A DNA stretch of 64,000 nt from a virus: positions 15,495-79,494 of IMG/VR virus record IMGVR_UViG_3300042549_008472; one strand, 5' to 3'. The translations under genes and the position numbers were made by a program. How positions within the stretch are numbered: position 1 is the first letter of the stretch; every line of letters begins with the position of its first letter. A model generated the notes under the pieces. The model ran no database searches and had not been told where the DNA came from. It saw nothing but the letters and a program-made list of their open reading frames with translations. Shown one piece after another: positions 5,788 to 64,000 of the stretch.

Positions 5788-8700
5788 TGGACAACGAAGG
5801 AATAATTAAAGATTTACGCAACAAATACAACCCTAAAAATAACGTTAACTTATTTGAGGTAAAGTTTGACGCACCAAAGCAAGAACAAGTAAAACCAAGC
5901 TTTTATTCATATTCTGCCGACACGCAAGATATGGCATATCAAACTCTAAACGATGATACTCAAATAGCACGATATGAAAGCTATGTACCAGGCTCAGATA
6001 ACAGCGAAAGACTTGCCTTAAATCAATCAACAGGAGATAAATGGATAAATGGATTAGGTAAATTTCTAGGTAAAACAGGAACAGCAGTTGGTGGAGGCAC
6101 AGTAGGAACAATTTATGGTATTACAGAAGCTATAAAACAAGGTTCTTTTGACGCTCTATACGACAATGATTTCTCTAGAAAGTTAGATGATTTAAACGTC
6201 AAAATGGACTATCAACTCCCTAACTACTATACAAAACAAGAAAGAGATAAAGGGTTTTTAAGCAGTATGACAGATGCTAATTTTTGGGCAAATGATGTAC
6301 TATCAGGACTTTCATTTACAGTTGGTGCAATTGTTTCAGAAGGTATTTGGGCAGCTGCAACAGGAGGAACTTCACTAGCTTCAACAGGAGCAAGATGGGG
6401 AATGAGAACTATAGGTGAAGCAGGAATACGTTCAGGATTAAAATCATTGAAAGGAACAGGAAAAACCTTATTAAAAGTTGGAGCAGTTAATGTTGATAAA
6501 GCTATTACGGCAGGAAAAATTGGCGCAGGAGTAAATGCTTTAAGATTTGCCATAACTTCAACAGGTTACGAATCAGGTGTAGAAGCATTACATTTTAAAA
6601 AAGAGGCGGAAGAAAACTTCCAAGCAGATTTTGAAAAATTAAATGGAAGAGCTCCAAATGAAGAAGACTATGCACTCTTTAAGGAGAATTTAACAGGAGC
6701 TGCTAACGGAGTATTTGCGCTAAATACAGCTCTTTTAATACCTTCCAATTTAGCTATGTTTGGTCAGAATGTAATGAAAAACTTACCTTCGCCATTCAAA
6801 GGAGTGACTCAAAAATTAAATAAAAGTTTATACGGAATAGGTACTAGATTAGAAGGAGAAACCCTTAAAGTTTTAGACCCCACTAAATTCCAGAGGATTG
6901 CAAGAAAAGCGACAATCTTAGGGAAGCCTGCCATAACAGAGGGTTTATATGAAGAGGGTATGCAATCAGTCGCTTCAAACTTAATGGGTAAATACTTAGA
7001 AGCAAGCTTTAACCCAAAATACACCCGAAACAGTATAGACATGTTTGACGCTGTATATGATAGTATGGCTGAAACCTATGGCACTAAAGAGGGCTGGAAA
7101 GAGATTGGGATAGGAATGCTTATAGGAGGTGGAACAAGCCTTCTTATGGGGCAAGGAGCTAACGAATTTAAAAAGTTAGATAAAGCTCAAAAAGATTATG
7201 CTGAGTATACTAACACCTATCAGCAAATGAGCCTGAGACAGAAAGGCATTATGAGTAATCAAACCCAGACTGCCATAACCAACTCAGAGACAGCCTTAGA
7301 GAGAAATGACAGAGTTGGAGCTAACTTAGCATCTAATGAGGCAATCATTGCTCAAATGGATTATAAGTTTTCAGTGGGGGAAGATTTAGCTGACTTGACA
7401 GCAGAGTATGCTGATGCTTTAAACAAAATGACGGCTGAGGAGTTTAAAGAAATAGGTGTAGAAGAGAGTCAAATACAAGAGTATAAAGATACAGTTATAA
7501 GTGCTCACAAATCACTAACAGAAAGATACGATAAGAATAGAACTTTTGCTGACTTATTTGTAGGAAGCTCTAATGTAATAGGGATGGATACTCAAGCTTT
7601 CGCTAAGGGATTGGCGTTTGCTATGACACAAGGGGAGAACTCTAATATTCTTATGGGAGATATCATAGAAAATTTATCTCAAAAACTAGGAGCAGAAAAT
7701 ACAGCTTCAATTCAAGCCGAGAGAAAACTAAGACAAGCAGGAGCAGAAGTAACTCAAGAAGTATATAAAACGGCGGAAGAAATAAAAGCTCTACAAGCCA
7801 GAAGTGCTCAATTAGAAAAGACCATTAGGAGAGTACAAGCAAGACCTAAAACTACGGGGGACATTAAAGGTAATCAACAAGCAGGTAATGAATACTTTGA
7901 CGTAGCTGAACAACTTATAGACGTACAAGCACAATTAAGTGAAAAGCAAGCACAATTAGACTCACTTGTAGCAAGAGTAAATAGTGAAATAGGAAAACAA
8001 CAAGGAATAGGAGAATTAAATTTACAAGGAAACCTAACAACAGACTTAGTTTCCTCAGATGTATTTTTAAACTTACAAGAGAATATAAAAAAAACAGACG
8101 CTTTAATTGAATCTTACAGAAATACTAATCCACAAGCATTTGCGGAATTAGCTGAATTAACTAGACAATACAAGAGTGCAGAACAAAACTTTGAGGGTTA
8201 TCAAACCCTGGCTAATCAGATGATGAGTGGTAAGTTAAACTTCAAATCTACAAACACTTGGATTGGAAAAGCTTTGAAAAAGGGGCAGACCTTAGATGAT
8301 TTTACCACTGACTTTTTTGCAGGAATAAGAGACACAACAGAAAGAGCTAATGCAGAATTTGAAGTAGTAGATACACAAGAGGAAGAGATAGCAAGAGACC
8401 CTAACAAACCATCACAAGAAAATAAGAATGAAGAGAAAATACAGGTATTAAATCAACAGTTAAGCGAGTTAGAAGCAGAACTAAAAGCATTAGAAAATAA
8501 ATCTAAAACTAATAATGGTAAAGTTACTAATGTTGTAACTAAACCCGAAGTTAAATCTGATATAGAAACTAAAAAAGCTGATATAGAAAAATTAGAAAAA
8601 GATAAGCAAGAAGAATTAAATAAAGATGTGTCAGACAGGTTTTCACAAGTAGAACGGCAACAAGCAAAACTTGAACCTAACCAAGAAGCACCTTTAAAGA

Positions 8701-48304: not shown

Positions 48305-48337
48305 AATTGTAATACATTTATAGCGATTAGCGATTAG

Positions 48338-48547
48338 TTATGTGATATTTACGCAGTTGACTAAAGCGTACCACATTCCTTTTTCATCATAACAAGTTTC
48401 AGCTTCTTTATTTATTTTAGCTATTTTAAAAATTAAACCGTTGCAATAATTTACTGTATCCCCGACAGAAAAAACATCACATAACAGTGGTTTTGACTTA
48501 TTGCCACATTCGATTAAATTTTCAGTTTGTTTTGTACTTGTATTCAT
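48338..48547 (-). CDS. Cassette gene, hypothetical
   Basis: Start inside hairpin loop, stop TAA inside GTTA core. Confidence 0.7.
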   Translation of the reverse strand: MNTSTKQTENLIECGNKSKPLLCDVFSVGDTVNYCNGLIFKIAKINKEAETCYDEKGMWYALVNCVNIT

Positions 48548-48612
48548 TGTGTTTAATTTAAATATTAGGTCTTATTTTATTGGCAACAAGACAAAGCCAC
48601 AATCCGTTAGCG
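48479..48612 (+). repeat. attC-like site
   Basis: ACATAAC, arm 48487-48506, arm 48581-48600 (17/20 complementary), GTTAGCG. Confidence 0.85.
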
Positions 48613-48867
48613 GTAATTTGCGAGAGCCGTAACTCGTTCCCAAAAAACTTTTTCAACTCTATCCATATCAAAACGGCTACTTTCTTTCATCATTAAAAAC
48701 ATTTGAGTAATAGCATAATCAAGCTCGCCTTTATCTTCTGTTTTTAAGTCAAAGTTTTTTTCTTTATTTTCTCCATAAAAAACCAACCATTTTACTTCGT
48801 CAACGGAAAAACTACCGCTAACAATCGTTTTGTCTAATGGCTTGGCTTGGGTATTATCTGAAATCAT
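48607..48867 (-). CDS. Cassette gene, hypothetical
   Basis: Start inside hairpin loop, stop in GTTA core. Confidence 0.7.
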   Translation of the reverse strand: MISDNTQAKPLDKTIVSGSFSVDEVKWLVFYGENKEKNFDLKTEDKGELDYAITQMFLMMKESSRFDMDRVEKVFWERVTALANYR

Positions 48868-48950
48868 ATTTTTTAAATTTAAAAGTTAGTGTATTTTTGT
48901 AAAGTCTAGTCTTAAATTACGCCACTAGACAAAGCGACCAAACGTTATAA
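48816..48950 (+). repeat. attC-like site
   Basis: CGCTAAC, arm 48826-48841, arm 48921-48936 (14/16), GTTATAA. Confidence 0.85.
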
Positions 48951-49151
48951 GCAAGTGTTACGTTTAGTCCATAAATTAGACAATAACCCAACAAGATTAT
49001 GAACGCAACTTTTTACATAAATCCGCTTCCATTCTACCAACCCAGTTAATTCATCTTCACGCCTCAATAATTCAACTGTTTTTATTCCACTTCTAAAATC
49101 TTGAACAAAACTAATATGTTCCCATTTACTCCATTTTCTTTTTTTAAACAT
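48945..49151 (-). CDS. Cassette gene, hypothetical
   Basis: Stop in GTTA core. Confidence 0.7.
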   Translation of the reverse strand: MFKKRKWSKWEHISFVQDFRSGIKTVELLRREDELTGLVEWKRIYVKSCVHNLVGLLSNLWTKRNTCL

Positions 49152-49192
49152 AATTTTATAATTTAAGTTATTTTTTAATTACCTACACCTGC

Positions 49193-49320
49193 TTATAACA
49201 GCAGTTACACGGCAGTTTGGGCTTTGTTTTTAATTTTCTGTTATTGTTTTTAAGTTCTGTTTCAACTCCGAAAGTATAGGCTTTTTTTACCTCAACCGCT
49301 CGTGTAACTGCAAAACTACG
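49193..49320 (+). repeat. Terminal attC-like site lacking its GTT core
   Basis: TTATAAC, GCAGTTACACG...CGTGTAACTGC (11/11), AAAAC, then TAC instead of GTT. Confidence 0.7.
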
Positions 49321-52920: not shown

Positions 52921-54864
52921 TTAAAAATCATCATTAAATAAATCCCCACCCATATTTTCCAATTTTTGATATGCACCGCTCTTACTTTCAAAAAAGTTTT
53001 GTCTTACTACTAAACTAATGTTCGACATAAAATCCAAAGGTTGTGAAACGTTAAATTCTAATGGTAGTTGATAATAATAAAGTAAATTATCAGCAACATA
53101 TTGAACATATTGTAACATCTTCTCTTTTGGTAAACCAATAACATCTCCTTGCTCATAGATAGACTCTACAAATAGTTTTTCAGTGTTATAACAGTCTAAA
53201 ATCATCTCTCTAACTTCTTCTTGTGGTAACTTATAATCATCTTTAATATATTTGTTATAAAGAAGTATTGCAAAGTTCATGTGCATTAATTCATCAATTA
53301 AAATCAATTCATTTGCTTGTCCAAGTCCCGCTAATTGTGGATATTTTTGGCGGAAAAACATTAAAAAAGCAAAAGTAGAACTAAAAGCCATTCCCTCAAC
53401 CAATGAGAACGCAACTACTCTTTGAATTAAACTGCCATTCTCTAACCATTTTTTAGCCCACTTAACTTTTTCAGCTACAATGGGATTGGTCTTAATAGCA
53501 TTAAACATTTCAAACTTTTCTTGGTCATCTTTTATAAGTTGTTCAATTAATCTACTATATGTTTCGCTTTGCCCTGTCAGAATACCATTAAATACCCCTG
53601 CATTTCTAAGAGGCTCGCTAAAACAATAAGTCATCTCGGTCTGTATTTTTTCTATATTTACAACTTTAATTAACTTTTTTCTTTCTACAACTAATTCATC
53701 AGTTTTAATCTGTAACCTTTTAGGATTAAACCCTAACTTAGCGAGCTTTTTAACGTTTGCTGTTGTTATATACAAGCAGTATAACTCTTTTGTTTCATAT
53801 AGTCTGTTAGCTCCTTTACCATCAGGTAATAAACTAAACCCTTCTTTTTTAGCCACTTTTAAATTTGCAGATATTCCTAAAGTAGTTAGTAAAAGTTTTA
53901 CATTTTTTATGAAATCTAAGTTTATTGAAGTATACTGAATAGCAGTAGCTGTCCTTTTTTTATTATAATTTATACAGCCGTCACCATCAAAAAGCCCCTC
54001 TAACCACTCTATTTTTGTTTTTACTGAATAGTTTATTGGTGTAAAAAACTTAGGTTTATTTAATTTATTGGTTAGGTAGAACTTATAAATATCTTTACGT
54101 TCTGCACTTAAATCTCCAAAATAAGGCAAAAGATTCTTCTTTTCTCCATATAATTTAATATATGGTGCATTATTTGTGTAACTACCATCTGCACAAAAGA
54201 ATCCATGTATATAAGGATTTAGTAAAAAATCTTCGTCTTGTAAATCTACAATTGGTAAATTGAAATCATATATAACATCCCCTAAACTTAATGTGTTTGT
54301 TGGTTTTTTTATTAACTTACAATTTTCTGGGTGGTTTTGATTACCATGTCTTATGAACCACTTATGCCCATCTGTACAATCTATATAACTACCATCGGAT
54401 AAGGTAACTCTATATAAATCTTGAACACCTGTTTCAACAATTCTTACCTTTGAAAATTCTTCCCCGTTCCATACATTAACCGATTCTCCGACTAATTTCC
54501 CAATTTTTAATTGCCCTTTATCTGTAAGGATTTTTGTATCAAAACTGACACAATGGACATCTTCTATATATGCTTGATAAACATAGTTAGATTTAATCTC
54601 TTCAATAGAGGAAAATTCTGAAATAATTTCATCGGCTAAATTATCTTGAACTATACTATCAGAAACACCAAAGAAACCTAATAGATGTTTTAAAATAGAA
54701 ACTGTTTTATCAGGTATCCCTTCAAAAGTATCTTTACTTAAATCTAATTCTTCTGCTGTCCAAATAGCTTGTTGTTGTTTTTTAAAATAATCCCACAACT
54801 CTGTGTGGTAGATAGGAAATTTAGTGTTACGTTCACCATTTGTAATATTTAAGTATTTACTCAT
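52921..54864 (-). CDS. nrdB: Class Ia ribonucleotide reductase beta subunit, intein-containing
   Basis: W..EE.DLS.D, IEDVH/SETY, VEG..FS..F, DE.MH, NFFE; start probably MSKYL. Confidence 0.9.
   Translation of the reverse strand: MSKYLNITNGERNTKFPIYHTELWDYFKKQQQAIWTAEELDLSKDTFEGIPDKTVSILKHLLGFFGVSDSIVQDNLADEIISEFSSIEEIKSNYVYQAYIEDVHCVSFDTKILTDKGQLKIGKLVGESVNVWNGEEFSKVRIVETGVQDLYRVTLSDGSYIDCTDGHKWFIRHGNQNHPENCKLIKKPTNTLSLGDVIYDFNLPIVDLQDEDFLLNPYIHGFFCADGSYTNNAPYIKLYGEKKNLLPYFGDLSAERKDIYKFYLTNKLNKPKFFTPINYSVKTKIEWLEGLFDGDGCINYNKKRTATAIQYTSINLDFIKNVKLLLTTLGISANLKVAKKEGFSLLPDGKGANRLYETKELYCLYITTANVKKLAKLGFNPKRLQIKTDELVVERKKLIKVVNIEKIQTEMTYCFSEPLRNAGVFNGILTGQSETYSRLIEQLIKDDQEKFEMFNAIKTNPIVAEKVKWAKKWLENGSLIQRVVAFSLVEGMAFSSTFAFLMFFRQKYPQLAGLGQANELILIDELMHMNFAILLYNKYIKDDYKLPQEEVREMILDCYNTEKLFVESIYEQGDVIGLPKEKMLQYVQYVADNLLYYYQLPLEFNVSQPLDFMSNISLVVRQNFFESKSGAYQKLENMGGDLFNDDF
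53569..54552 (-). mobile_element. Intein (328 aa) with LAGLIDADG endonuclease, ending in Gln
   Basis: H|CVSFDTKILT...CTDGHKW...GFFCADG...GLFDGDG...TYCF...NGILTGQ|S. Confidence 0.9.
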
Positions 54865-54892
54865 TTTTATTATTGATTTAATTATTTTAGAC

Positions 54893-55038
54893 AAAAAAAC
54901 TCCTGCCATTAATTTGCGACAGGAGCATTATTTTTATGTTTCGTGTACCAAGTTCTTAAAAAAGATTCTTTTACACCGCTATCTCGGACAGCCTTTTTAA
55001 TTTGATACAAATATAATTCTTTTATATGATTTGTGCAA
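54893..55038 (-). promoter_or_regulatory. Promoter, ~100-nt structured leader and intrinsic terminator upstream of nrdB
   Basis: TTGCAC...TATATTTG (55038-55008); GCTCCTGTC/GGCAGGAGT stem plus T tract. Confidence 0.55.
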
Positions 55039-58856: not shown

Positions 58857-59570
58857 CTATTTAAAATATTTTTGATAAATTTTAAAATACTCTGAAATTT
58901 CTTTGCAAACAGATACAACAGAATTTTTTAAATAGTATTCTACATCTTCTTTTTTATATGGTGTATAGATATAATCAATCTGACCCGTTAACCTTAAACA
59001 GTTTTTATCACCTATTATTAAATTATTTCCTTTGCGGTCTAAATGATTTACTCTGCAACCACCGATATCAAAACCTTCTAATTCTCTTTGATAAGCATAC
59101 ATACGAGTTTGATAATACTTTTTTATATCTCCATACTTCTCTTGCATACTTTTAGATGCACCTGTCTTTAAATCTTCTATAAATAACATACTATCAATCT
59201 CGTATTCATGGTCTGAAAACCCCTGTAAAACACAATCTTTAAGTCCAAAAGGTTCAAGGTCAATTACTATTTCAGACTCGTATTTAGAACTTTCATGTTT
59301 AACTAACTGATTAATAGTGTTCATGTCAAATTCAGACAGATTTTTATCCCTCTCGCCATCAGAGAAATAAGTCCCTACAAGATTACCAAAAAATGCAAAC
59401 ATACCACTTTCAGAGGAGTTTCCTAAAAAATATCCTTGTATGTACTGCTCTTTATAATCTTTAAAAGAATTAAGTTGACTATAACTAATTTTCTGTTTAT
59501 TTTTATGTTGTGGGTAATTACCTAATTCATTTTCATACAACTTAGGTAAATTTATTTTAATTGCTTTCAA
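58857..59570 (-). CDS. PD-(D/E)XK (RecB/Cas4-like) exonuclease
   Basis: ISYSQL, GFSD, IEDLKTG, Q..MYA. Confidence 0.75.
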   Translation of the reverse strand: MKAIKINLPKLYENELGNYPQHKNKQKISYSQLNSFKDYKEQYIQGYFLGNSSESGMFAFFGNLVGTYFSDGERDKNLSEFDMNTINQLVKHESSKYESEIVIDLEPFGLKDCVLQGFSDHEYEIDSMLFIEDLKTGASKSMQEKYGDIKKYYQTRMYAYQRELEGFDIGGCRVNHLDRKGNNLIIGDKNCLRLTGQIDYIYTPYKKEDVEYYLKNSVVSVCKEISEYFKIYQKYFK

Positions 59571-60519
59571 ATTCTTCTTTTAATTGGTTTATAATTTCAT
59601 CTATCTGTTTTTGATTGGTTACCTTTCCAAAATTAGAATCAATTTCGGCTAAAGATGCTTTAACTAAATCTAATACAATGTCTTTTTCTTTTTTAGATAA
59701 TTTATTCTTTTTTAAAATTTCCTCTAACTTCTGTTTATCTTTTATTGTAATTACCTTATTTGTATAAATCTTTTGTAACAGAGGTAACTCTTCTGTTTTA
59801 ATATCTTGCCTAAAAATAGGCTCTAAAATATTATCTCCTTTCCAAACTCTTATTAGGTTACTTAATACTGCAACATCTGATTCACAGTAAGATTGTAGCT
59901 CTTTAATTCTACCTGAATAAAAATAGTCAGAAGTTTCATTACCATGCATAATGAGTTTACTTGATGGAATCTTAAAGCACATTGCCAATTCATCTAAAGA
60001 AGTGTTTCCAAAATTTATCCCCTTCCATAATTTCATACTGTCATGTACAGATTTTTCCATATCCCACACTTTCATCCCTACATCATTACCTTGTGTCTCA
60101 GATAAATAATCTTCTGTCTTTAATCCATTTATGAACCACCTTTTTCTTATGTAGGGCATGTCAAACTCAGCGTTATGAAAGACTAAACTCCTGCCCGTGG
60201 ATTTAACTAAAGATATTAAATTAGTCAGTATTTCTTTCTCTTCCCCAACAAAAGACTTAATATGAAGTTCATCATTATGTATAAATCCAACAGATATACA
60301 AGCTATTTTACCCCACTCAGGGAATAATGCCGATTTATCATAATAAAGGCGAATATTTTCTTCATCTGAAAGAAATTCATTAGTCTCTTTATTTCTCTGT
60401 TTCCACTGCCAAACACTATAATATGGGTGGCTTTGGTCAAAAGTCTCTTCTCCTCTGATGGTTTCACAATCTGCAAAAAGAAGTTTTGAGTAATCTAAAT
60501 TTTTAATTTTACTGTTCAT
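59557..60519 (-). CDS. PolB-type 3'-5' exonuclease (DnaQ-like)
   Basis: DCET, GKIACISVG, HNAEFDMPYI, YCESDV. Confidence 0.8.
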   Translation of the reverse strand: MNSKIKNLDYSKLLFADCETIRGEETFDQSHPYYSVWQWKQRNKETNEFLSDEENIRLYYDKSALFPEWGKIACISVGFIHNDELHIKSFVGEEKEILTNLISLVKSTGRSLVFHNAEFDMPYIRKRWFINGLKTEDYLSETQGNDVGMKVWDMEKSVHDSMKLWKGINFGNTSLDELAMCFKIPSSKLIMHGNETSDYFYSGRIKELQSYCESDVAVLSNLIRVWKGDNILEPIFRQDIKTEELPLLQKIYTNKVITIKDKQKLEEILKKNKLSKKEKDIVLDLVKASLAEIDSNFGKVTNQKQIDEIINQLKEEFESN

Positions 60520-60522
60520 CTG

Positions 60523-61314
60523 TTATTTATTTAAAATCATTTCTAAAATGTCTTCTCTGTGTTTTTGACCATTTTTTGTTTGAGCATATTTTGCCTTTGC
60601 CTCCAAAATCGTCCACAGTGGTACAACTTTTAATTCAAAATCATCGTATTTTAACAGTTCATATTTTTGTTTTGGGTCAATTTTTATGTCGGCTTTTAAA
60701 CTATTGATTAAGATACAATCATCATAATCACTTCCGCTAAACCTCTCTTCTCCTCCATCTTCGTCAACCTTAATGCCTTCTTTGGTTAAAAGTTTTGAGT
60801 AAAATGGTAAAATAAAATCGTAATCTCCAACACCTGAAGAAAAACGGTTAAGTCTAACACCCTGTAAATAAAGTGCTATACTTCCTCCAACTATAAGATG
60901 AGGATTCAATTCTTGTAATGCTCTTACAGTTTCTATTTTCATAGCTTTATCAAGCAGTTTTTTCTTTTTATCTGCTTCGATTTTATTTAACTCTTCCTTA
61001 GTTATTTCTCTTAAGAATTTAATACACTTTGCCCCGCTCTTTTTGTCAGAACCATCTTCAAAATTACCTATTATTTCAATCTCAAAAAATCTATTACCGC
61101 CGTTATTTGTATAATAATCAAAAGTATCTTCCAAGTTATTGCAATAATGAAGAGCTGTTTTTGTGCAAAGTTTTAGTTCAGGACTAATTATTATTGAACC
61201 GTCTTTTACTTCTTTAACTTCATTTTTGTCATCAATATAGTAAGTTTTACCCACTTCAAAAGCTACATCTCTGCACTTTAAATTTTTGTCTGTTCCTTTA
61301 TATCCTAATTTCAT
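60523..61314 (-). CDS. Two-domain protein with C-terminal nucleotidyltransferase-like domain
   Basis: N-terminal YKGTDKNLKCRD..FEVGKTY phage domain; VGGSIAL...GDYDF. Confidence 0.5.
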   Translation of the reverse strand: MKLGYKGTDKNLKCRDVAFEVGKTYYIDDKNEVKEVKDGSIIISPELKLCTKTALHYCNNLEDTFDYYTNNGGNRFFEIEIIGNFEDGSDKKSGAKCIKFLREITKEELNKIEADKKKKLLDKAMKIETVRALQELNPHLIVGGSIALYLQGVRLNRFSSGVGDYDFILPFYSKLLTKEGIKVDEDGGEERFSGSDYDDCILINSLKADIKIDPKQKYELLKYDDFELKVVPLWTILEAKAKYAQTKNGQKHREDILEMILNK

Positions 61315-61334
61315 CCTTCTGTTATTTAATTATG

Positions 61335-61365
61335 CAAATATATTCTTTTTATTTTACTCTTGCAA
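61335..61365 (-). promoter_or_regulatory. Bacteroidota-type promoter
   Basis: Minus strand TTGCAA...TATATTTG. Confidence 0.6.
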
Positions 61366-61478
61366 ATTTATTTTTAAATATTTAACCCCTTGTTCAGTTT
61401 CTTTTATTTCTCCTGAAAACTGCCAATCTATGTATTCAGAACCATTTTTACTTCTACAAAATGTATTATATTTCATCT

Positions 61479-62282
61479 TTATATTGGCAAATTTATTTTA
61501 CTTAAAATTTGGTTTGACACGTGAGTATAGACCTCGGTTATTTTTGAGGAGCTGTGGCCTAAACATTTTTGTATGATTCGCAGGTCTGTTCCTGCTTCCA
61601 ATAATGCCGTTGCTTGTGAATGCCTTAGTAAATGAAAATGATAATCTTTACCAATATATTTCTTAACTATTTCATTACAACTTCTGTGCGAATATTTCAA
61701 TCCAAACTGACCACTAAACAAGAACTCTTTTGGTCTACATTCTTTAAAGTATTCGCGCAAAAGATTTAAAACAGTAGAAGATAGAGGAACAAAACGGCTT
61801 TTCCTACCTTTACTATTAACAATATGAATCAACATTCTTTTACTATCAACATTCTCAATTTTTAAATTACAAACTTCACTAACTCGCATTCCTGTAGAGT
61901 AAGCTAAAGTGATAATAGCTTTGTGTTTCAAATTTTCAATTTTTGAAATCTTATCAAGTAAAAAATCTTTATCAATTACTCTTGGTAATTTTTTCTCTGA
62001 TTTTGGTCTTTTAAAAGACACTTTATCATACTTCTTCTCTAATCCGTATTTATATAAAAATCTAATAGAATTTATCACTTGATTTTGTTGAGAAACTGAA
62101 CTAAATTTATAATTATCTAAATAGTTTTGAAAATCTTTAGCATTTAAATGTGATATTTGTTTATCTCCAATACTTTTTACAAAATCCTTTATGTGATAAA
62201 TATAGTTTTCTTTTGTTCGTGGAGAGTAATTAAGATATATAAACTTTTGTTCGCAAATCTTTATAATTTTTTCGTTTAACAT
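61479..62282 (-). CDS. Tyrosine recombinase (Xer/IntI-like), probable cassette integrase
   Basis: N-terminal YSPRT..NY; catalytic GMRVSE, KGRK, HLLRH, LGH, VYTHV. Confidence 0.9.
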   Translation of the reverse strand: MLNEKIIKICEQKFIYLNYSPRTKENYIYHIKDFVKSIGDKQISHLNAKDFQNYLDNYKFSSVSQQNQVINSIRFLYKYGLEKKYDKVSFKRPKSEKKLPRVIDKDFLLDKISKIENLKHKAIITLAYSTGMRVSEVCNLKIENVDSKRMLIHIVNSKGRKSRFVPLSSTVLNLLREYFKECRPKEFLFSGQFGLKYSHRSCNEIVKKYIGKDYHFHLLRHSQATALLEAGTDLRIIQKCLGHSSSKITEVYTHVSNQILSKINLPI

Positions 62283-62332
62283 GTTGATTTTATTAGTGTT
62301 TCAATACAGTTGAGTATATATTTATGTTATAA
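62283..62332 (+). other. attI-like site
   Basis: Hairpin-free segment between the integrase ATG and the first core GTT at 62326. Confidence 0.6.
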
Positions 62333-62692
62333 CACATTTTTTTCCAATGTTACCGCTGAATCAGAAATAACTAAAATTTCTTTATAAGTTTCTTTGTCTA
62401 CTATTAAAGCCATAGGTTTAGTAAATTTCATATGTTGAAAAACCAAATCTGTTATTCCTTCAATCCTGCTTAAATTGCTTTTTGCTATTTCTAAATCTCT
62501 TTCCCATTCTGCAATTAATTTCTTTTGTTTTTGCACTTTTTCAAACGCAAATAATAATACTTCCTTTGCTACATTTTCATCGCCTTGAATTTCATTTACA
62601 ACCCCTGAAAAAGAAGTTAAATCGTCTAAATTAAAACGTGTTATAACATCGGTTTTGTTAAATGCCTTGTTTTGGTCTTTTTCTGTATTCAT
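62327..62692 (-). CDS. Cassette gene, hypothetical coiled-coil protein
   Basis: Start in hairpin loop, stop in GTTA core. Confidence 0.7.
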   Translation of the reverse strand: MNTEKDQNKAFNKTDVITRFNLDDLTSFSGVVNEIQGDENVAKEVLLFAFEKVQKQKKLIAEWERDLEIAKSNLSRIEGITDLVFQHMKFTKPMALIVDKETYKEILVISDSAVTLEKNVL

Positions 62693-62774
62693 TTTGTTTA
62701 ATTTTAAAGTTATTGTTTACTTGTTGCGTTTAGTCTTAAAATACGGCACTAAACAAAGCCGTCAAACGTTACCT
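62641..62774 (+). repeat. attC-like site
   Basis: TTATAAC, arm 62650-62666, arm 62745-62761 (14/17), GTTACCT. Confidence 0.85.
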
Positions 62775-62798
62775 GCAAGTGCTACATTCGTTCTTCGA

Positions 62799-63728
62799 TT
62801 AAACATTTTCGTTAGAAAAATTATTAAAAATTTCCTCCCCTTTTAAAAAAGAAAAAATATAAGCAATTACATCTACTGTCCAGCCATTTCCTAATACTTC
62901 ATATCGTTTAGAAGATGATACCATTTTTGTATAATCTTTTGGAACACTTTGTAGTTTCTCTACTTCGTTTTCTGTTAATCTTCTTATTTCTCCATTAGGC
63001 AAATATGTTTTGGTTAAATGCCTTGCAGCTCCGTGATGTGATGCAGATAAACAAGCCATTAATCCATCATATCTGTAAATATTATCCTGTTGGTGTTTAC
63101 CTGCCTTGTGTCTTATTATTTCATTCTCGCTCCATTTGTAATTTAAGTCAAGTTTTGACTTTTGCTTTTCGGTTAAATAATATTCACTACTTGCTTCTTC
63201 TAAAATATCATTCAAGCAATGATTAAATGTATTTGGAATATTTTCAATTTTTATATTAGTCCAAAATAATCTTGGTCTATTTTGCGGCACAAAAAACTTT
63301 GAGTTTATTTCAATAGGTTCTACTCCTATTGCTTCTGAAATTATATCTTGCCATTCTTTTTTCATTTTTACATTTTCTAATAAAAAATAAGTTGGTTTAG
63401 TTTCATTTAATATTCTTACATATTCCCAAAATAAACCACTTTTTCCATCAAAACCCTCTCCTCTACCAGCATTTGAAAAAGATTGACAAGGACTTCCCCC
63501 TATCAATAAATCTACTTGTGGTAAATCCGTGCCTTTTATTTTCGTAACACTTCCAAGTTGTTTAGTATTTGGGTAGTTTGCCATTGTTATTTTTATAGCA
63601 TCTTTGTCAATTTCAGAAGCAAAGTAATTCTCTACTTCAAGCCCTGCTCTTTCTAACGCTATTTGACCACAACTAATGCCATCAAACAATGATAATACGT
63701 TTATTTTTTCTTTTTTGCCTACACTCAT
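62799..63728 (-). CDS. C5-cytosine DNA methyltransferase (cassette-borne)
   Basis: LSLFDG, GGSPCQ, LLENV, QNRPRLFW, LGNGW. Confidence 0.92.
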   Translation of the reverse strand: MSVGKKEKINVLSLFDGISCGQIALERAGLEVENYFASEIDKDAIKITMANYPNTKQLGSVTKIKGTDLPQVDLLIGGSPCQSFSNAGRGEGFDGKSGLFWEYVRILNETKPTYFLLENVKMKKEWQDIISEAIGVEPIEINSKFFVPQNRPRLFWTNIKIENIPNTFNHCLNDILEEASSEYYLTEKQKSKLDLNYKWSENEIIRHKAGKHQQDNIYRYDGLMACLSASHHGAARHLTKTYLPNGEIRRLTENEVEKLQSVPKDYTKMVSSSKRYEVLGNGWTVDVIAYIFSFLKGEEIFNNFSNENV

Positions 63729-63788
63729 TTTTAATAATTTTTTTGTTTAGTATTTCGTTTAAGTTTCTCGTTAATTAACCGCACCAGC

Positions 63789-63881
63789 AGGTAACAAGGT
63801 ATTTGCAAAATTGCCCATCAACATTTGTGCTTAATTTCAAGTATCTGCAAGGGCAACTTCGCAAATACCCGACCGTTAGTG
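63789..63881 (+). repeat. attC-like site
   Basis: AGGTAAC, arm 63798-63816, arm 63851-63869 (17/19), GTTAGTG. Confidence 0.85.
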
Positions 63882-63887
63882 GCAATG

Positions 63888-64000
63888 CTACCCGAACACA
63901 CGAGCAACTGCCAAATCATAATATTTTACCTCTTTTTCAATTCCAATAAAAGAACGGTTCAACTCTTTTGCTCCTAAACAAGTTGTTCCTACTCCCATTG
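63888..64000 (-). CDS. C-terminus of a beta-class N6A/N4C DNA methyltransferase (partial, cassette-borne)
   Basis: Manual translation: ...MGVGTTCLGAKELNRSFIGIEKEVKYYDLAVARVFG-stop (SAM-binding motif). Confidence 0.8.
   Translation of the reverse strand, partial: MGVGTTCLGAKELNRSFIGIEKEVKYYDLAVARVFG

Follow-up and report, generated by a model that had tools for sequence, protein, structure and literature searches.

The DNA analysed here, referred to as the window, is the terminal 64 kb (64,000 nucleotides) of the 79.5-kb IMG/VR virus contig IMGVR_UViG_3300042549_008472, and its base 64000 is the contig end. Close to this end, the gene for a tyrosine recombinase of the Xer type adjoins a short sequence resembling the attI insertion site of integrons, followed by small genes separated by imperfect hairpins. 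We consider this region to be, with good probability, the recombinase-proximal end of an integron-like cassette platform in a large lake-water phage. Such a platform had been proposed in an earlier note made from the letters of the window, and the proposal is upheld by the hairpins, which are a covarying repeat family tied to the recombinase clade. In related phages, cassettes are found reordered or gained, the breakpoints coincide exactly with the AAC/GTT core, and a fixed gene content and order was not seen.

Organization of the cassette array

All genes from 58 kb to the contig end are located on the minus strand. The array contains the following features, given in window coordinates, with a slash marking the junction within the attI-like site:

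61479–62282, minus strand: Xer-type tyrosine recombinase, 267 amino acids (Pfam PF00589, 5.8e-39, and PF13495)
62314–62338, minus strand: attI-like site, GTGTTA-TAAC/ATAAATATATAC, with TAAC at 62329–62326
62326–62767, minus strand: cassette 1, body and hairpin A on the recombinase-distal side; ends GTTATAACAC and GTGTTATAAC
62327–62692, minus strand: open reading frame (ORF) of 121 amino acids, unknown function
62644–62771, minus strand: hairpin A, long class, 128 nt; TAAC 62771–62768, arms 62761–62747 and 62664–62650, GTTA 62647–62644
62768–63874, minus strand: cassette 2, body and hairpin B; ends GTTACCTGC and GCAGGTAAC
62799–63728, minus strand: C5 cytosine DNA methyltransferase (Dcm type), 309 amino acids (PF00145, 8e-49)
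63792–63878, minus strand: hairpin B, middle class, 87 nt; arms 63851–63869 and 63798–63816, bulge of about 4 nt, stem of about 20 bp
63875–64000, minus strand: start of cassette 3, ended by the contig end; C-terminus of an N6/N4 DNA methyltransferase, stop codon 63888–63890

The GTT at 62326 is positioned 44 nt beyond the ATG of the recombinase, as the earlier note had it, and the unit boundaries and motifs that it gave also stand. Its description of cassette 1 had to be corrected, as the AAC end at 62647 falls inside the ORF of 121 amino acids. The cassette hairpin is assigned to the recombinase-distal side, upstream of the gene, because there is none between the last gene and the attI-like site.

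Hairpins form a covarying family upstream of the recombinase

In the coding orientation, the hairpin element opens with x6-TAAC-G and closes with T-GTTA-y6, where TAACG and TGTTA are invariant. Between them, a bulge of about 4 nt is followed by a stem of about 20 bp with its loop. A scan for TAAC, a stem with at least 12 of 15 positions paired, and GTTA in 51 loci and the window yielded 207 elements, compared with about one per 64 kb of shuffled sequence. Relative to the recombinase ATG, 160 elements are located upstream (in 184 kb) and 25 downstream (in 282 kb), with up to ten in 6 kb. The roughly tenfold higher density upstream, with a fixed orientation, holds for about 40 of the 43 loci that have at least 1 kb of upstream DNA. 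The elements fall into three size classes of about 55, 87, and 125 nt, and their loops range from about 10 to 75 nt. Counterparts of the window stretches 62644–62771 and 63792–63886 precede the recombinase in other loci, where several copies are often present at one locus.

The inverted repeats that had been noticed after each AAC are present in the window. Those of hairpin B (63798–63816 and 63851–63869) are 19 nt long and form 17 of 19 Watson-Crick pairs on the plus strand, and all positions are paired on the minus strand if G.T pairs are counted. The arms of hairpin A (62650–62664 and 62747–62761) are paired at 13 of 15 positions, and its loop contains the ATG and about the first ten codons of the 121-amino-acid ORF. 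Folded as single-stranded DNA, hairpin B reaches −17.3 kcal/mol on the minus strand (z −3.4) and −14.6 kcal/mol on the plus strand (z −2.2).

The alignment of the middle class (n=43) contains 25 pairs, which are 97.3% paired (a fraction raised by the way the elements were selected, see below) versus 39–52% when the arms are slid. Compensatory changes occur in 17 of the 20 stem pairs, and the covariation score was reached by none of 500 shuffles. The long class (n=72) has 24 pairs, 95% paired with the same proviso, and many pair types. G.U is held at fixed columns in 40/43 and 43/43 elements of the middle class and in 71/72 of the long class. Because G.U is fixed at particular columns, the coding strand folds better than its complement; the fixed G.T wobbles would become A.C mismatches on the opposite strand. 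Conserved single-base bulges were not seen in the elements, which have the one-sided bulge of about 4 nt after TAACG. A search of 61000–64000 against Rfam gave nothing near the gathering score of any family, and a typical hairpin of the clade had no BLAST match in 50,697 phage records.

Cassette ends are complementary to each other

Both end pairs of the window occur at the coordinates given by the earlier note. GTTATAACAC (62326–62335) pairs with GTGTTATAAC (62638–62647) at 10 of 10 positions, and the complementarity extends to 16 of 17 nt. GTTACCTGC (62768–62776) pairs with GCAGGTAAC (63787–63795) at 9 of 9 positions, and the GTTA that follows is at 63875–63878. Taken alone, the two matches are weak, because 9-mer GTT pairs are near chance in the AT-rich window: a GTT 9-mer with its reverse complement 150–1500 nt downstream is found 24 times, about once per 2.7 kb, and there are six independent inverted repeats matching at 16/17 nt, about one per 10 kb. 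The end matches become strong once the sites are defined independently, through homology to other loci. Across 52 loci, the y6 that follows GTTA was compared with the x6 preceding the TAAC of the following hairpin; 47 of 146 comparisons are perfect and 26 more match at 5/6, against 0.6% and 1.8% for random pairs. The flanks of the same hairpin match at the random level. Thus, as had been claimed, the AAC end matches the start of its own cassette and not the adjacent GTT, and the attI-like site behaves likewise. Such own-end complementarity is the footprint expected of circularisation, because the joined ends of a circle would complete the hairpin.

Nearly all orthologous loci have the conserved motif x6-TAAC/TAYTATATATR, located 40–50 nt before the recombinase ATG. 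TAAC is the core common to the attI-like site and the hairpins, which have nothing else in common, and the sequence towards the recombinase is the conserved site-specific part. The x6 of the attI-like site matches the y6 of the nearest upstream hairpin perfectly in 15/37 loci and at 5/6 in 10/37 (random, 2% and 6%). Two contigs, L005 and L006, start precisely at (C)TAAC, and DNA homology to many other loci stops at window position 62321, just short of the GTT at 62326.

Two other origins of the end matches were considered and abandoned. Chance was dropped after cross-locus homology had defined the sites independently. An invertible segment between the 17-nt repeats 62324–40 and 62633–49 was rejected, since its reverse strand has no matching open frame; the repeats are the cassette ends. 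Separately, a perfect 16-nt inverted repeat of A and T only (62816–62831 and 63727–63742) brackets dcm; it is of low complexity and probably due to chance.

Cassettes are relocated and gained in related phages

The flanks of loci L011 and L013 are 97–100% identical, and the two share a 960-nt cassette at different array positions. In L011 it occupies the third position or one further out, in L013 it directly adjoins the attI-like site, and the bounds of its homology are exactly TAAC/G and TAAC/T. Loci L042 and L049 have one 381-nt cassette in common, at 96% identity, with different neighbours. The cultured Polaribacter phages Freya_1 (MT732463.1) and Freya_10 (MT732472.1) encode an integrase 37% identical to the window enzyme. 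Freya_10 is longer than Freya_1 by 4.9 kb; the insertion is located at ...AAC/, 47 nt ahead of the integrase ATG, between flanks that are 99.9–100% identical. The insertion carries about 12 small genes, and at least one internal hairpin ends in CCAAC/GTT. The genomes of ten isolates of the Freya-species Polaribacter phage range from 44.0 to 48.9 kb (loci L053, L054, L069, and L070).

Logan contigs of four lake-water metagenome runs (X1–X4) were placed on window positions 60500–64000. Run X1 provides separate contigs for 60500–62330, 62301–62797 (cassette 1 as one node), 62768–63377 and onward, and 63874–64000. Because these contigs meet at 62326–62330, 62768, and 63874, the X1 assembly graph forks at the three predicted junctions. 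A 2.2-kb contig of X2 extends from the recombinase to 62329 and continues with 687 letters unlike cassette 1, a different hairpin end precedes cassette 1 in X3, and a contig of X4 starts at 62326. The depths of the X1 contigs (backbone 24.3, cassette 1 4.5, Dcm cassette 10.4 and 7.4, third cassette 22.2) fit a cassette-polymorphic population, but they are crude, with one figure per contig to which cassette-sharing phages add, and were not used as support. The DUF7666 gene next to the recombinase has one relative at 55% identity (L055), with no recombinase and no array at that place. Because L055 is the only relative found through DUF7666 and has no array, the window has no backbone-matched assembly comparison.

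Recombinase resembles XerA and has no IntI-type insertion

The Pfam domains of the recombinase are a SAM-like N-terminal domain (PF13495/PF02899) and a catalytic domain (PF00589), with no others matched. The enzyme is catalytically complete, as had been stated: R133, K158/K161, H217, R220, H243, and Y252 are present and invariant across 34 orthologues. It scores below all NCBIfam cut-offs for Xer proteins (XerA 171.2 bits, cut-off 220; XerC 156.4, cut-off 335; XerD 152.2, cut-off 330). The hidden Markov model of IntI, TIGR02249, matches in two pieces with 150.5 bits (cut-off 265), and PRK15417 reaches 94.6 (cut-off 435). The alignment to the structure of XerA is colinear, whereas that to VchIntIA (PDB: 2a3v) is broken, with query residues 179–209 (31 residues) opposite IntI residues 181–259 (79 residues). 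The structure model (mean predicted local distance difference test score 85.6) has XerA as its nearest fold, then IntI (VchIntIA), then XerH. In the model, residues 183–198 form only a loop, and the additional helix of IntI is absent there. As judged from the split alignments and the model, the recombinase is without the IntI-specific insertion (I2 helix region), in agreement with the earlier note, and XerA is its nearest relative by sequence and fold matches. No arm-binding domain of the lambda Int type was found in the 267-residue protein, which has a two-domain model and Pfam matches limited to the core and catalytic domains.

The recombinase is present at 47–91% identity on 51 viral contigs. 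Because the flanking genes are unrelated and the upstream stretches recur, the recombinase appears to travel with its upstream site and not with its neighbours. Relatives of the enzyme are labelled 'integrase' in PHROG and GenBank. Among bacterial genomes, matches were confined to contigs of metagenome-assembled genomes (MAGs), the close ones to short contigs, and no close match is located in a chromosome. Two of the MAG contigs, L057 and L058 (51–53% identity), have hairpins as well as the attI-like motif and probably represent phage DNA that was binned into the MAGs. L056 (56% identity) begins merely 34 nt before the gene and is hence uninformative about arrays. No hairpin elements were found on MAG contigs with recombinases less than 45% identical. 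The MAG-contig matches give no information about the host.

Several loci contain interrupted or truncated recombinase genes. In L047, a 130-kb relative, the gene (6001–7250) is 94% identical over the first 105 codons and is interrupted after codon 105. A 278-amino-acid ORF, with an N-terminus resembling NUMOD4/HNH homing endonucleases by eye, replaces the catalytic half, the final 29 nt of the recombinase gene are left, and ten hairpins are still present upstream. In L048, L050, L051, and L052, the attI-like site and the first 16–27 codons are left beside surviving hairpins and are followed by unrelated phage genes. In two of them (L051, 5954–6052; L052, 5954–6047), what is left is the site and 16–17 codons. 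By their sequence, these stubs are remnants of deleted recombinases.

Cassettes carry small genes, including methyltransferases

In 115 of 120 units, the longest ORF (median 95 amino acids) has the same strand as the recombinase gene and is directed towards the attI-like site, and the same is true of all three window cassettes. Stop codons are positioned 1–16 nt before TAAC, and the TAA of TAAC itself terminates 14 of 117 cassette ORFs, one of which is the 121-amino-acid ORF of the window. In 35 of the 76 long-class units, the ORF starts inside the hairpin loop; many loop-starting ORFs open with a similar peptide (...L-N/D-I/K-S/T-D-V-S-G-S).

Of the 82 larger cassette proteins, about 70 match no Pfam family; among the others are six or seven DNA methyltransferases, the Thoeris inhibitor Tad6, a GNAT protein, and an ADP-ribosyltransferase. 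Two further methyltransferases are encoded in the window. The Dcm-type assignment of the first is backed by TIGR00675 (164 bits, cut-off 100.65), phrog_116, and matches to phage Dcm proteins; the N6/N4 methyltransferase fragment of cassette 3 matches PF01555 over its last 36 residues (2.2e-07, 31.5 bits, cut-off 26.7). The 121-amino-acid protein of cassette 1 has no Pfam, NCBIfam, or PHROG family, and its Atlas matches are at 0.80 or below, unnamed, and mostly viral.

The Dcm cassette (63712–63868 and 62765–62828) and a cassette of L047 (4027–4185 and 4985–5047) have the same hairpin, leader of about 70 nt, and 3' end. Their common parts are 79–86% identical and they have the same x and y end motifs, but their genes are unrelated. 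Because the two share termini and differ in the gene, cargo appears to be replaceable inside a conserved cassette frame. The cassette methylases probably protect the phage from host restriction enzymes, and rapid diversification of the anti-restriction and anti-defence repertoire is the likely role of the platform.

Proposed mechanism of cassette exchange

Along the direction of transcription (minus strand of the window), a cassette would comprise G, the hairpin, T-GTTA-y, the gene, and x-TAAC, with x and y being reverse complements of each other. The ends of a circularised cassette would pair into a forked hairpin with an outer duplex (x-TAAC-G with T-GTTA-y), the bulge of about 4 nt, and the stem of about 20 bp. 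The adjoining 267-residue recombinase would exchange strands within TAAC between the cassette hairpin and the double-stranded attI-like site TAAC/TAYTATATAT. Incoming cassettes would land beside the recombinase, and hairpin-by-hairpin recombination could excise any cassette. The folded strand is predicted to be the coding (minus) strand, which is 'bottom' in integron geometry and is pointed to by the conserved G.T wobbles. The single-stranded folded substrate would be resolved by replication.

In this scheme, the window recombinase is the presumed catalyst, based on its linkage to the sites. Circular intermediates and a substrate of single-stranded, folded DNA are further steps that we infer. 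That a tyrosine recombinase without the IntI domain recombines folded single-stranded hairpins in the manner of integrons is a narrower claim, towards which we lean only slightly.

Several observations weigh against the platform or parts of its mechanism. The window contains only two complete cassettes before the contig ends. As free single-stranded DNA, hairpin A folds no better than shuffled sequences (z +0.57), and because its lone fold does not beat shuffles, its stem rests on the evidence from the family. The elements were picked for pairing, which inflates the paired fraction, although not the compensatory changes or the fixed G.U columns. The G.U pairs of the sense strand fit a role at the RNA level equally well. 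With an enzyme that has no IntI insertion, hairpin recognition must differ from that in integrons, or the substrate is perhaps not single-stranded, and the link between enzyme and sites appears as an association in the sequences compared. Run X1 is possibly the source sample of the window contig and is then not independent. Two findings misfit a strict scheme of one crossover per hairpin: in X3, a contig matches the Dcm cassette as far as 63796 and continues with sequence unlike hairpin B, and the Dcm cassette has a counterpart in L047 with another gene and both termini alike.

Alternative explanations

The hairpin arrays could be fragments of bacterial integrons, of the kind known as clusters of attC sites lacking an integrase (CALINs), served by an IntI of the host, while the phage recombinase performs lysogeny or dimer resolution. 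Integrase-less attC clusters are known from phages, one of them a Polaribacter phage, and five of six phage attC sites tested were recombined by IntI1 (PMC9892861). The AAC/GTT motif is the integron core, and the window itself has a cluster without a recombinase at 48337–49207. This explanation does not account for elements being about ten times denser upstream of the recombinase, in fixed orientation and in about 40 of 43 loci, or for the conserved site directly before the recombinase gene, which obeys the end rule and at which insertions land. In addition, elements are absent from the MAG contigs with recombinases less than 45% identical, and there is no IntI on the contig. We consider it improbable, though the best placed of the alternatives.

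Alternatively, the hairpins could be RNA or DNA expression signals, such as terminators, processing sites, or promoter stem-loops like the PeSLs of T4-type phages, and the shuffling a by-product of homologous recombination. The sense-strand G.U wobbles, the start codons in long-class loops, the conserved leader of about 70 nt after some hairpins, and the replacement of cargo inside conserved termini would all suit such signals. However, recombination between repeats does not yield complementarity of a cassette's own ends that is unrelated to the ends of the neighbouring hairpin. The attI-like site and the hairpins share TAAC only, yet the junctions are exactly there, and the recombinase next to the site is conserved with its catalytic residues intact. 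Expression signals as the whole explanation are therefore very improbable, but an RNA role could coexist with recombination.

Least probable of all is the reading of the enzyme as a conventional phage integrase, with attP at the TAAC site and a prophage border where contigs end: relatives are annotated 'integrase' in PHROG and GenBank and several contigs start at the site, but most contigs read through it into phage-type cassette arrays, the protein has 267 residues and no arm-binding domain, the contig encodes DNA polymerase, helicase, ligase, ribonucleotide reductase, and NAMPT with no lysogeny module seen, and the close bacterial matches are not in a chromosome but on short MAG contigs with the same arrays.

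Comparison with known systems

The integron-like platform shares with integrons a recombinase gene beside a double-stranded insertion site, followed by mostly single-gene cassettes with imperfect hairpins. Common to both are outer (R) and inner (L) duplexes, an AAC/GTT core containing the crossover, and first bases that pair with the cassette's own far end. New or re-inserted cassettes are found beside the recombinase, and decayed arrays without the enzyme occur. The preference for insertion adjacent to attI is also shared; in the phages, the evidence for it is comparative (the relocation in L013 and the 4.9 kb of Freya_10). The cassette ORFs of integrons are directed away from intI, and their transcription starts from a promoter on the attI side. 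In contrast, the phage cassette genes point towards the recombinase, and the hairpin is upstream of the gene, often with the start codon. In the phage hairpins, the bulge of about 4 nt is one-sided and G.T wobbles are fixed, which may set them apart from the integron attC, described as having a central bubble and extrahelical bases. In integrons, the IntI-specific insertion contacts the extrahelical bases of the folded attC. A survey of tyrosine recombinases describes it as essential for integron function (PMC8138268). The phage enzyme has no such insertion and scores as a generic Xer-type protein, and the carrier is a phage.

Qi et al. (2023) described attC clusters without an integrase in phages, read them as integron parts, and tested them with IntI1 (PMC9892861). 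Like the arrays described here, these clusters have attC-type sites between small genes, include phages of marine Flavobacteriia, and carry methyltransferase cargo (PMC9892861). They have no integrase of their own, whereas the present arrays are linked to a non-IntI recombinase that the phage itself encodes and that has a conserved insertion site of its own.

Xer recombinases (XerA, 4a8e and 5hxy; XerC/D; XerH) provide the best sequence and fold matches and have the same simple two-domain organization. Unlike them, the window enzyme is below all Xer cut-offs, is phage-encoded, and is not at a dif-like site, and the reaction inferred for it would move small cassettes rather than resolve chromosome dimers or integrate whole phages. 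A precedent for an Xer enzyme acting on a forked single-strand hairpin is the CTX phage, whose folded single-stranded genome is integrated by XerCD. PeSLs are 'mobile regulatory cassettes' of the hyperplastic regions of T4-type phages, and their shuffling is attributed to homologous recombination at regulatory repeats. They resemble the present arrays in having small accessory phage genes with repeated stem-loops between them that are shuffled among related phages, but have no dedicated recombinase, insertion site, or own-end complementarity. Full-text searches of the literature found no description of cassette arrays tied to a phage Xer-type recombinase.

Genomic context, second cluster, and host

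Outside the array, the following features are located in the window:

48337–49207, minus strand: second cluster, three cassettes, no adjoining recombinase; hairpins 48947–48819 and 48609–48482
59557–60519, minus strand: exonuclease
60523–61314, minus strand: DUF7666 protein

The second cluster is 13 kb from the recombinase. It starts with the hairpin-less TAAC-TGCT-GTTA and ends with CACATAAC/TAATCGC, and both of its hairpins are long-class. Its end pairs, GTTATAAGC with GCTTATAAC, GTTAGCGGT with ACCGCTAAC, and GTTATGTG with CACATAAC, show perfect own-end pairing, and its ORFs of 68, 86, and 69 amino acids belong to no Pfam family.

Other genes of the contig encode large virion proteins, DNA polymerase, helicase, ligase, ribonucleotide reductase, and NAMPT. 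In the contig gene set, in which no search was aimed at repressors, there was no sign of a lysogeny module, and the carrier phage is probably virulent. Over the whole contig, a Shine-Dalgarno-like 4-mer precedes 3 of the 63 ORFs of at least 100 amino acids (5%), and the leaders are A-rich and G-poor at positions −16 to −12, as in Bacteroidota and their phages. The closest cultured relatives of the enzyme are encoded by Polaribacter and Cellulophaga phages; no recombinase more than 39% identical to it was found in cultured phages. These are hints that the host of this large lake-water phage belongs to Bacteroidota.

An ORF of 662 amino acids (52921–54909, minus strand) has two separate regions that match the small subunit of ribonucleotide reductase. 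An endonuclease family matches residues 300–356, between the two, which suggests, at the level of sequence, an intein or an in-frame insertion of a homing endonuclease.

Implications

Integron function is taken to require a single family of enzymes, in which an additional domain recognises the folded attC. If a widespread phage system with a plain Xer-type enzyme follows the same site logic, this would change the view of where integron-type gene capture occurs and what it requires. The phages concerned are probably those of Bacteroidota, in which classical integrons are rare. Capture of hairpin cassettes would not be unique to IntI and would have either arisen twice or predated the IntI insertion, and the phage systems may stand close to the integron ancestor. 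The enzyme of 267 residues, sites of 55–130 nt, and attI-like site of 20 nt are tractable substrates for studying the origin of hairpin-acting tyrosine recombinases.

In the paper on the Freya phages, the integrase was taken to suggest a temperate lifestyle (PMC8776804). Such use of the 'integrase' label as a sign of lysogeny may be wrong. Long-class hairpins carry the start and first codons of genes, and, if the reading is true, recombination could swap the N-termini of proteins as well as whole genes. The platform would represent a dedicated mechanism for the turnover of anti-restriction and anti-defence genes, and its unannotated cassettes are candidate counter-defence genes, which the phage would reshuffle within its population.

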